Part shown: one piece after another, positions 57,807 through 58,307 of the stretch | Numbering within the stretch: the stretch's first letter is position 1 | How the letters are laid out: the number at the start of each line of letters is the position of its first letter | NCBI RefSeq assembly: GCF_055900595.2 | Contig: NZ_CM148325.1 | DNA length: 64,000 nucleotides | Reading direction: 5' to 3' (one strand) | Made by a program: the position numbers and the translations under genes | Notes under the pieces: model-generated | What the model was told of the DNA's origin: nothing | Seen by the model: only the letters and a program-made list of their open reading frames with translations | Database searches by the model: none

Positions 57807-58307
57807 TCATGAATAAACCCCTTGCTCTATTCGAAAAATGAGCATGGCAACTTTCAACACCCCCTCTTCTGAGTCCATTATCTCGGAGGGCGTTTTCCAC
57901 TGTAATGCTCTGTTTGGTTCATTGCACCAGTTTAATGCTGCACTTTCGTTACCTTCAAAAAGATCAATAGCCTTTTGAAGAACATCATTTTTTGTCAGCA
58001 TGTTTTACACCTGAAGACGTTTTGAGTGCTTCGATAAGACTACTTCGCTCTTCCTCTGTCATCCGGGATATGAGCAATGCAAGTTCTGCTGTTGTCTGAT
58101 CATCACAAAAAAGTAGTTCAACGGCACGTTTAACTCTGCCGCCATCCGTCGAATCGTATCAATATCGGGGACATGGCGCCCTTTCTCATAATGATTCATA
58201 CGACTGCTAGCCGATGCGGGATCAAAGCCAACATGAAGAATTGATAATTGCCGTGCCGAGCAGAGAAAATGAATTCCGGAAACTTTCTCTTGAGCAAGAT
58301 AAAACAC
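57807..58307 (-). pseudogene. Xre-family HTH plus DUF2384 (ParS/MbcA-type antitoxin-like) gene, disrupted by frameshifts
   Basis: N-terminal HTH fragment (...RMNHYEKGRHVPDIDTIRRMAAELNVPLNYFF) and separate C-terminal ORF with the DUF2384 signature (AALNWCNEPNRALQWKTPSEIMDSEEGVLKVAMLIFRIEQGVY); frames differ and are interrupted at T6/A6 runs. Confidence 0.55.

Follow-up and report, generated by a model that had tools for sequence, protein, structure and literature searches.

The controller C.Csp231I uses two CTAAG-N5-CTTAG sites 18 bp apart (PMC4321490). A C.Csp231I-like Xre protein of ~100 residues is encoded between tnsABC and tniQ-cas in I-F3b CRISPR-associated transposons, and its two bound upstream motifs and autoregulation have been read as serving high expression on host entry (Petassi et al., 10.1101/2020.07.02.184150). 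Among RES-Xre toxin-antitoxin systems, KnaAT has been characterised (PMC10896132). GInt islands carry ginABCD at one end and their cargo from the ginD stop onward (Bardaji et al., 2017; PMC5385486), and they have been reported from 7.5% of Escherichia replicons (PMC10214605). The four gin products are two catalytic tyrosine recombinases, a large non-catalytic protein with a recombinase fold and a small protein, and imperfect direct repeats of 10-17 nt border such islands. Here, we relate these systems to positions 57807-58307 of a 64,000-nucleotide stretch of an E. coli chromosome (contig NZ_CM148325.1 of assembly GCF_055900595.2; hereafter the window), where the remains of a helix-turn-helix (HTH) controller gene and a small open reading frame (ORF) with a DUF2384 domain lie on the minus strand.

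An original prediction made from this DNA proposed a single decayed Xre-DUF2384 antitoxin gene whose partner toxin had been lost. It was right that the HTH gene has decayed, that the downstream ORF is antitoxin-like and that no toxin is present; the single gene and the loss of a toxin in place do not hold. With a probability of about 0.85, the interval is instead the inert remainder of an operon of two genes, which stood at the cargo edge of a GInt-type island (ginABCD) integrated just downstream of hipA. We infer that the controller gene is dead and that the small ORF is intact by chance. What had been taken for a decaying toxin-antitoxin module consists of pseudogene remains that border a decayed GInt beside hipA, and the copy here is ordinary.

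Two Genes of Different Origin

Three minus-strand frames of 57807-58307 are of interest. The first reads ...VGFDPASASSRMNHYEKGRHVPDIDTIRRMAAELNVPLNYFF, the second frame of the HTH segment continues as CDDQTTAELALLISRMTEEERSSLIEALKTSSGVKHADKK*, and the third holds a 64-codon ORF (58001..57807) whose ATG lies 17 nt before the stop of the second. The translated frames bear out that an HTH-coding segment and a DUF2384-like ORF lie in different frames of this strand. Of the two homopolymer runs at which the frames were said to be broken, only one is a break when judged by alignment with three intact alleles from other strains (L003, L019 and L002; alignment A1). The T6 run (58107..58112, minus strand) is T7 in all three, i.e., a 1-nt deletion, and is the only internal frameshift of the controller pseudogene. 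The A6 run (57988..57993, minus strand) lies within the natural 17-nt overlap of the two genes, formed in the window by the HTH gene stop (57987-57985) and the start of the small gene. The sequence around it, GACAAAAAATGA, is the same in intact loci, where the HTH stop and the small-gene ATG (58001 in the window) also overlap by 17 nt. Because the run is unchanged in intact alleles with two separately called genes, it is not a lesion. In L003, for example, the HTH gene is called at 6001-6333 and the small gene at 6317-6511, and the arrangement elsewhere is similar.

Homologues give the same picture. A conceptually fused query of 169 residues, searched against 5.8 billion proteins, returned 521 matches. 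The best 120 of these, from Enterobacterales, Vibrio, Shewanella and Photobacterium, are all stand-alone HTH proteins of 94-140 residues (mostly about 100-110), and PF09722 is absent from every one of the 120. Close relatives of the small ORF are likewise stand-alone (27 of 27; 37-74 residues). Since HTH homologues and small-protein relatives each stand alone, the two parts were never one gene. Two separate genes, without a toxin gene, are found in E. coli (L003 and L019-23), Enterobacter (L018/L129), Klebsiella (L004-7) and Pectobacterium (L015-17). A Klebsiella plasmid antitoxin, WP_004181895.1, whose gene precedes a gene for a RES-family NAD+ phosphorylase, has 57% identity to the small ORF in its C-terminal domain, and the HTH protein shows no similarity to the N-terminal half of that antitoxin. 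Only the small ORF thus resembles a RES-Xre antitoxin, and the HTH and DUF2384 parts are of different origin.

The 64-residue protein encoded at 57807..58001 (minus strand) is intact and comprises the toxin-binding domain of Xre/ParS/MbcA antitoxins (DUF2384) and nothing else; an N-terminal DNA-binding or dimerisation domain is absent. It matches Pfam PF09722 (Xre_MbcA_ParS_C) with an E-value of 1.2e-10 over model positions 2-51 of 51, which confirms the DUF2384 assignment in the original prediction. The NCBIfam profile Xre_ParS_antitoxin is matched over positions 55-112 only (E 1.8e-14; 53.8 bits vs. a cut-off of 90). An identical protein, WP_000956368.1, is named "MbcA/ParS/Xre antitoxin family protein" by PGAP, and the allele of the intact locus L003 is one residue apart. 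An AlphaFold2 model built on the family alignment reaches a pLDDT of 93.8. Its best 13 fold matches in the PDB are all RES-family antitoxin chains, with query-normalised TM-scores of 0.68-0.82, and unrelated folds follow only after them; the top matches are VPA0769 (8GUG_B, 0.82) and P. putida Xre (6GW6_B, 0.81), and ParS, NatR and MbcA are also among them. A HMMER scan of 1.84 billion representatives yielded 1757 relatives of the 64-residue protein. The nearest long ones (P0151 and similar) combine an Xre-like HTH with PF09722, and the gene after P0151 encodes a Res_ParT toxin (E 1.3e-46). Short relatives that stand alone are numerous as well.

The small gene starts at an ATG of its own, with a Shine-Dalgarno-like AGGTG 6 nt upstream. 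Between diverged intact alleles, the ratio of non-synonymous to synonymous substitution rates is 0.09-0.25 for the small gene and about 0.05 for the HTH gene. These values are consistent with a real protein-coding gene that is under weaker constraint than its HTH neighbour.

No Toxin Gene Beside the Pair

The absence of a partner toxin, which the original prediction had noted, holds up. The minus-strand frames of 57230-57806, concatenated and scanned against Pfam, gave no match even at E<=10 and hold neither an ORF nor a RES remnant, and the ~141 bp between the stop of the 64-residue ORF (57807) and the stop of the convergent gene (57665) are free of ORFs, as the prediction had said. In a near-identical annotated genome, no RES gene is annotated within 20 kb on either side. 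A phmmer search with two RES toxins against all ORFs of 95 loci with the controller module (described below) found none, and no RES gene stands next to the module in any locus examined. Moreover, the stop of the small gene and that of the convergent ginD are only 25-116 bp apart in intact loci, which leaves no room for a toxin gene. Since intact loci of several genera conserve an arrangement without a toxin gene, no toxin was lost in place. RES toxins do accompany relatives of the small protein: a true relative (L026) has a RES toxin gene directly downstream, and among plasmid records of Klebsiella, 1103 contain the RES-Xre pair to which WP_004181895.1 belongs, as do 62 of 5426 E. coli genomes.

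The Probable Cargo Edge of a GInt-Type Island

Convergent with the pair is a ginD remnant (57228..57696, plus strand), which matches GinD residues 4-132 with 80% identity in tblastn. Its first 3 codons are replaced, and comparison of frames with L003 places a frameshift near its 3' end; PGAP lists it as "hypothetical protein, frameshifted". The genes ginABC are deleted, as L002 580-6000 is replaced by 21 bp in the window (57246-57266). An operon of four genes runs convergently to the pair in E. coli (L003, L019-23), in Salmonella (L010) and in L017, a contig of Pectobacterium type obtained from a sequencing run. Its products are, in order, two Pfam-positive tyrosine recombinases, a ~788-residue protein without Pfam matches and a ~144-147-residue protein, and the order, the sizes and the Pfam integrase matches fit ginABCD in these loci. 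The pair begins 25-141 bp from the ginD stop.

Four loci (L019, L020, L022 and L023) show the full island at the chromosomal site of the window, in the order autotransporter-hipB-hipA-ginABCD. Their cargo beyond the regulators is of the retron Ec78 type (PtuB match, E 4e-65), and the cargo in Klebsiella and Pectobacterium includes an OLD-type ATPase with a UvrD-type helicase. In the window, an ECSE_1600-type autotransporter gene (49844-55312) is followed by hipB and hipA (55509-57115), the region in question and a fimbrial operon. The hipBA genes are intact and immediately adjoin the site of GInt insertion. Strain SWHEFF_68 (L002) has a complete GInt and a deletion of hipB together with most of hipA (window 55444-57054).

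Twin Operators and the Spread of the Controller Module

Two palindromes, CTTAG-N5-CTAAG, lie 19 bp apart with TATACA between them upstream of the HTH gene, and they are conserved from E. coli to Vibrio (alignment A3). Exactly two copies were present in all of the 31 loci with an intact HTH gene that this count covered. The operator pattern was then sought as an exact match in one genome of each species; of the 95 stretches that contain it, 11 are from Enterobacterales and most come from marine Gammaproteobacteria. The HTH gene is directly downstream of the operators in 94 of the 95, and a homologous divergent ORF of about 170-190 codons is present in 73. Among the 56 loci with enough flanking sequence, convergent tnsC-tnsB-tnsA genes occur in 23 and ginDCBA in 4. 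The module is found on three kinds of mobile element, namely GInt, Tn7-like elements and an island with a P4-type integrase and MobI. Two operator matches were in metagenome-assembled genomes of Bacteroidota and one in a metagenome-assembled genome of Bacillota, for which mis-binning is possible. The small gene accompanies the module in 6 of the 11 Enterobacterales loci vs. 0 of the 84 others.

The divergent proteins of Vibrio and Pectobacterium have the Pfam domains VspR_N and VspR_C. The E. coli protein of 186 residues is homologous to the Pectobacterium protein of 199 residues (E 8e-25). Scanned directly against Pfam, the E. coli protein matched nothing but a coiled coil, which is spurious, and a PDB sequence search with the VspR-like protein found nothing significant. 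The label VspR-like is therefore used for the E. coli protein as a putative assignment by transitive homology.

The intact HTH orthologue aligns with C.Csp231I (PDB 3LFP) over 86 residues (9-94) with an E-value of 1.8e-22 and with the PADLOC profile "Control_protein" (E 5e-26). In a profile scan, the conceptually repaired protein of the window matches HTH_19, HTH_3 and HTH_31.

Toxin-less DUF2384 genes also occur in other settings. Pectobacterium encodes a second DUF2384 protein of 107-110 residues downstream of the VspR-like gene (L015 4668-4991, minus strand; L080; L090), which is 41% identical to the 64-residue ORF and has the EPNRAL-W motif in common with it; either divergent regulator can accordingly have a toxin-less DUF2384 gene after it. 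A stand-alone DUF2384 protein of 65 residues (P0154) is encoded at ~6001-6198 in L027-L030, 245 bp upstream of a pair of SMODS nucleotidyltransferase and S_4TM effector genes. This locus, a toxin-less DUF2384 gene beside a defence-like system, adjoins transposase genes of the Tn3 and IS3 families. A literature search for orphan DUF2384 proteins found no report.

Decay of the Module in the Window

Deletions were mapped by blastn and tblastn against intact loci (L019, L003 and L002). The pseudogene of the C.Csp231I-class Xre controller (57985..58239, minus strand) retains ~codons 27-110 in two frames: residues 21-71 of the intact 110-residue protein align by tblastn at 58259-58104, and residues 65-110 align at 58125-57988 in a different frame. 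The upstream segment, which had been described as the N-terminal Xre part, is not N-terminal. Homology to the intact gene starts only at ~codon 26-28 (window ~58233-58239), and the 5' part of the ORF at 58059..58307 runs antisense to the 3' end of the VspR-like gene on the plus strand. This fragment of the VspR-like gene (58232..58378, plus strand), divergent from the controller, holds the last 48 codons (58232-58375) plus the stop and matches residues 139-186 of the 186-residue protein with 79% identity in tblastn. At the junction between the two remnants (58233..58239), ~589 bp are missing relative to L019 7173-7761: by blastn, L019 6829-7172 corresponds to window 58577-58233 and L019 7762-8191 to window 58239-57811. 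The deletion took codons 1-138 of the VspR-like gene, the divergent promoter, both operators (L019 7610-7658) and the first ~25-27 controller codons. In the whole 64-kb window, the operator pattern is absent even when one mismatch is allowed.

A second controller fragment (60721..60899, minus strand) consists of half of the proximal operator and codons 1-49, joined to sequence upstream of a leucine-rich repeat (LRR) gene. It is 98% identical over residues 1-49 in tblastn. In the common stretch of about 60-69 bp, the two fragments differ at 4 positions, and their closest alleles differ as well (97.6% identity to L003 for the first vs. 96.6% to L019 7653-7830 in blastn for the second). Since the second fragment is independently truncated and has these 4 differences from the first, at least two modules were once at the site. 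We also asked whether the common stretch is a target site duplicated when the LRR cassette was inserted and rejected this because of the 4 differences and the unlike closest alleles. The PGAP "HTH" pseudogene at ~63250-63387 was likewise dismissed as a third copy, as its translation is the N-terminus of an IS481 transposase.

Among complete E. coli genomes, 211 of 5426 have the VspR-like/HTH module. The small gene is annotated as intact in only 5 of 32 evenly sampled genomes, and all 8 unannotated copies inspected contain stops or frameshifts. The invariant Trp25 is changed from TGG to TGA in L031, L032, L035, L036 and L038 amid differing flanking substitutions; in L031, L032 and L038, the frame beyond this codon stays open and conserved. 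Repeated inactivation, dispersal through recombination or leakiness of the stop could account for this. The window reverses the usual E. coli state, with a dead HTH gene and an intact small ORF. The ~970 bp in common with L003 contain two frameshifting indels and the small ORF makes up 20% of this length; hence its survival is unremarkable. Between the LRR gene and the controller pseudogene lies a terminator-like hairpin with a T tract (58422..58438, minus strand; a pattern match only), and a consensus scan upstream of the ATG found no sigma-70-like promoter. The small ORF is probably silent as far as such patterns can tell.

Neighbouring Features

The LRR gene (58951-60477, minus strand) encodes a protein of 508 residues, named hypothetical by PGAP, whose C-terminal half has leucine-rich repeats of the SspH2/SlrP (LPX) type. 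NCBIfam matches (E 2e-54 and 1e-36) are far below the cut-offs, and there is no NEL E3-ligase domain. The protein contains a SKNSKNSKN repeat, and the annotated gene is 1383 bp in Z0117EC0005 and 1569 bp in E200086. Beyond the second HTH fragment, an ankyrin-repeat protein (PGAP name) of 657 residues is encoded at 61170-63143 (plus strand), without a match in NCBIfam or PADLOC; its gene stands where the VspR-like gene would stand relative to that fragment. The LRR-ankyrin island is present in 15 of 5426 complete E. coli genomes.

Fragments of an IS481-family transposase and of an alpha/beta hydrolase lie at ~63250-63387 (minus strand) and downstream, where the decayed island has its far end. 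The N-terminal HTH of the transposase is what PGAP calls "helix-turn-helix domain-containing protein", and a fimA-like fimbrial operon lies beyond. About 2,680 E. coli genomes contain matches of 90-100% identity to a ~60-bp element at 63337-63400, in or beside yjhR, djlA and IS256-family transposase genes, and the element is probably a short dispersed repeat. An Rfam scan of 56500-61500 (E<=0.1) gave no match.

Alternative Explanations

A single Xre-DUF2384 antitoxin gene from an Xre-RES module, broken by two frameshifts and deprived of its toxin, is highly improbable. The small ORF is a true PF09722 protein whose nearest full-length relatives precede RES toxins, and one A less in the A6 run would fuse the frames. 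Against these points stand the lack of any fused homologue among the best 120 HTH matches and the 27 small-protein relatives, the identical A6 run in intact two-gene loci, the C.Csp231I-class nature of the HTH protein, the 25-116 bp gap and the missing RES remnant. Programmed +1 frameshifting at A6-TGA, or slippage during transcription of the same run, could be thought to yield a fused HTH-DUF2384 protein. Shifts to +1 are known where a stop codon in the A site adjoins a homopolymer; +1 is also the frame of the small gene, and AAA AAA TGA is conserved in E. coli, Pectobacterium and Klebsiella alleles. Dual coding in the overlap accounts for this conservation, however, and the small gene has a start codon and AGGTG of its own, the allele L034 lacks the A run and a stimulatory element is absent, so that we give such a fusion hardly any credence. 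It is similarly difficult to believe that the regulator was repurposed to control the adjacent LRR gene, an option raised in the original prediction. It is true that the second HTH fragment immediately precedes the LRR gene and shares its strand, but PGAP marks this fragment as a partial pseudogene, both fragments are truncated and the window has no complete operator. The first fragment is downstream of the LRR gene, behind the hairpin and without its promoter and ~27 codons; its position and truncation and the absence of the operator make LRR control unlikely.

Two further alternatives concern the small protein itself. As its gene is directly beside ginD, it might be a recombination directionality factor (excisionase-like) for the gin recombinases, and a survey of tyrosine-recombinase elements uses a DUF2384 profile as an excisionase marker (PMC8138268). 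Yet a minimal GInt with only ginABCD suffices to integrate and excise (PMC5385486), and neither the Salmonella GInt (L010) nor any Tn7-like version of the module has the small gene, which 84 of 84 non-Enterobacterales loci lack too. In addition, Pectobacterium has a DUF2384 gene after the VspR-like gene as well, far from ginD, and the sequence and fold are those of RES-antitoxin domains, which together render this role very improbable. Less far-fetched, and still unlikely, is that the 64-residue ORF is expressed in the window as an orphan antitoxin domain against a RES toxin encoded elsewhere, e.g., on a plasmid. The ORF is intact, one residue from the allele of an intact locus and as close to the plasmid antitoxin domain as stated above, the RES-Xre pair is common in Klebsiella plasmids and known from E. 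coli, and the family is under purifying selection. This has to be set against the deletion of the native promoter and operators, the upstream hairpin, the want of a promoter-like site and the broken state of the ORF in 8 of 8 unannotated E. coli copies; its intactness here is expected by chance.

Several observations weigh against our interpretation of the locus as an inert relic of a controller-DUF2384 operon in a GInt-type island, and against the function proposed below. The silence of the 64-residue ORF rests on consensus scans, and read-through from the LRR gene or a non-consensus promoter is possible. The assignment of the E. coli gin genes builds on gene order, sizes and Pfam integrase matches. 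Relative to C.Csp231I, the central base of each half-site is swapped (CTTAG...CTAAG here), and the sites are putative. The broken small ORF in most E. coli copies weakens a role against toxins in trans, and in strain ABWA45 a RES-Xre plasmid coexists with a small ORF that has decayed fully, which as a single case is uninformative.

A Possible Role in Intact Islands

In its intact form, the operon consists of a gene for the 110-residue C.Csp231I-class controller and a gene for the 64-residue toxin-binding domain that begins 17 nt before the stop of the first, with the twin CTTAG-N5-CTAAG operators upstream and the VspR-like gene transcribed divergently from them. By analogy with C.Csp231I and the I-F3b Xre protein, relatives for which concentration-dependent autoregulation through the operators has been shown, the controller of intact islands may bind the twin operators and autoregulate the controller-DUF2384 operon, so that expression would surge on entry of the island into a cell without controller. 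The free toxin-binding domain might then bind a RES-family toxin made elsewhere in the cell, which is speculative. Our best guess for the mini-gene, drawn from homology and gene order, is a neutralisation of RES toxins in trans that would be timed to island entry. More specifically, the 64-residue protein could be a toxin-less "antitoxin decoy" against resident RES-family NAD+-depleting toxins, such as those of the KnaAT-type modules that Klebsiella plasmids commonly carry, with an anti-addiction or anti-defence function, and the unit of controller, VspR-like gene and twin operators could be a portable, entry-timed switch that GInts, Tn7-like transposons and integrase islands have in common across Gammaproteobacteria; we put this forward tentatively and consider it rather doubtful.

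The controller, the conserved twin operators and the divergent VspR-like gene recur at the junction between mobility genes and defence cargo, and the controller module extends over about 90 gammaproteobacterial species and at least 3 kinds of mobile element. Enterobacterales versions add the mini-gene, which corresponds to the toxin-binding domain of RES antitoxins alone. If RES binding in trans is true, the island would carry its own antidote to plasmid addiction or abortive-infection toxins. One RES toxin of this kind is KnaT, through which virulence plasmids of Klebsiella are stabilised.

Comparison With Known Systems

The controller resembles the C.Csp231I/C.EcoO109I class in the 86-residue alignment and in the two 15-bp palindromes of the form CTNAG-N5-CTNAG, which are 19 bp apart here and 18 bp apart in Csp231I. 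It differs from this class in what follows the controller, which is the DUF2384 mini-gene (in Enterobacterales) or nothing, rather than a restriction endonuclease gene; a restriction-modification system of type I is nearby only in V. cholerae loci, on the other side of the VspR-like gene. The divergent VspR-like partner and the GInt and P4-type island hosts are further differences. Moreover, the copy in the window is truncated, frameshifted and without operators; the twin operators hold for the family and are lost in this copy. The likeness to the I-F3b Xre protein lies in the position of the controller next to tnsC-tnsB-tnsA in the 23 loci mentioned above, which is the position given by Petassi et al.

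With RES-Xre, ParST, MbcTA and KnaAT, the small protein has in common the PF09722 domain, the antitoxin fold and its identity to an antitoxin C-terminal domain, and it differs from their antitoxins by the missing N-terminal domain and from their operons by the lack of a RES gene, which is absent from the 64-kb neighbourhood and from all related loci too. The comparator loci resemble GInt in the order and sizes of the recombinase genes, in cargo that starts from the ginD stop and in the presence of defence genes in that cargo, and the window retains only the damaged ginD. Finally, an HTH regulator gene beside vspR in a defence island is also found in VC0176-VspR of the Vibrio cholerae island VSP-I. 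As the E. coli protein reaches VspR only by transitive homology, this likeness is a lead and does not amount to a claim of membership.

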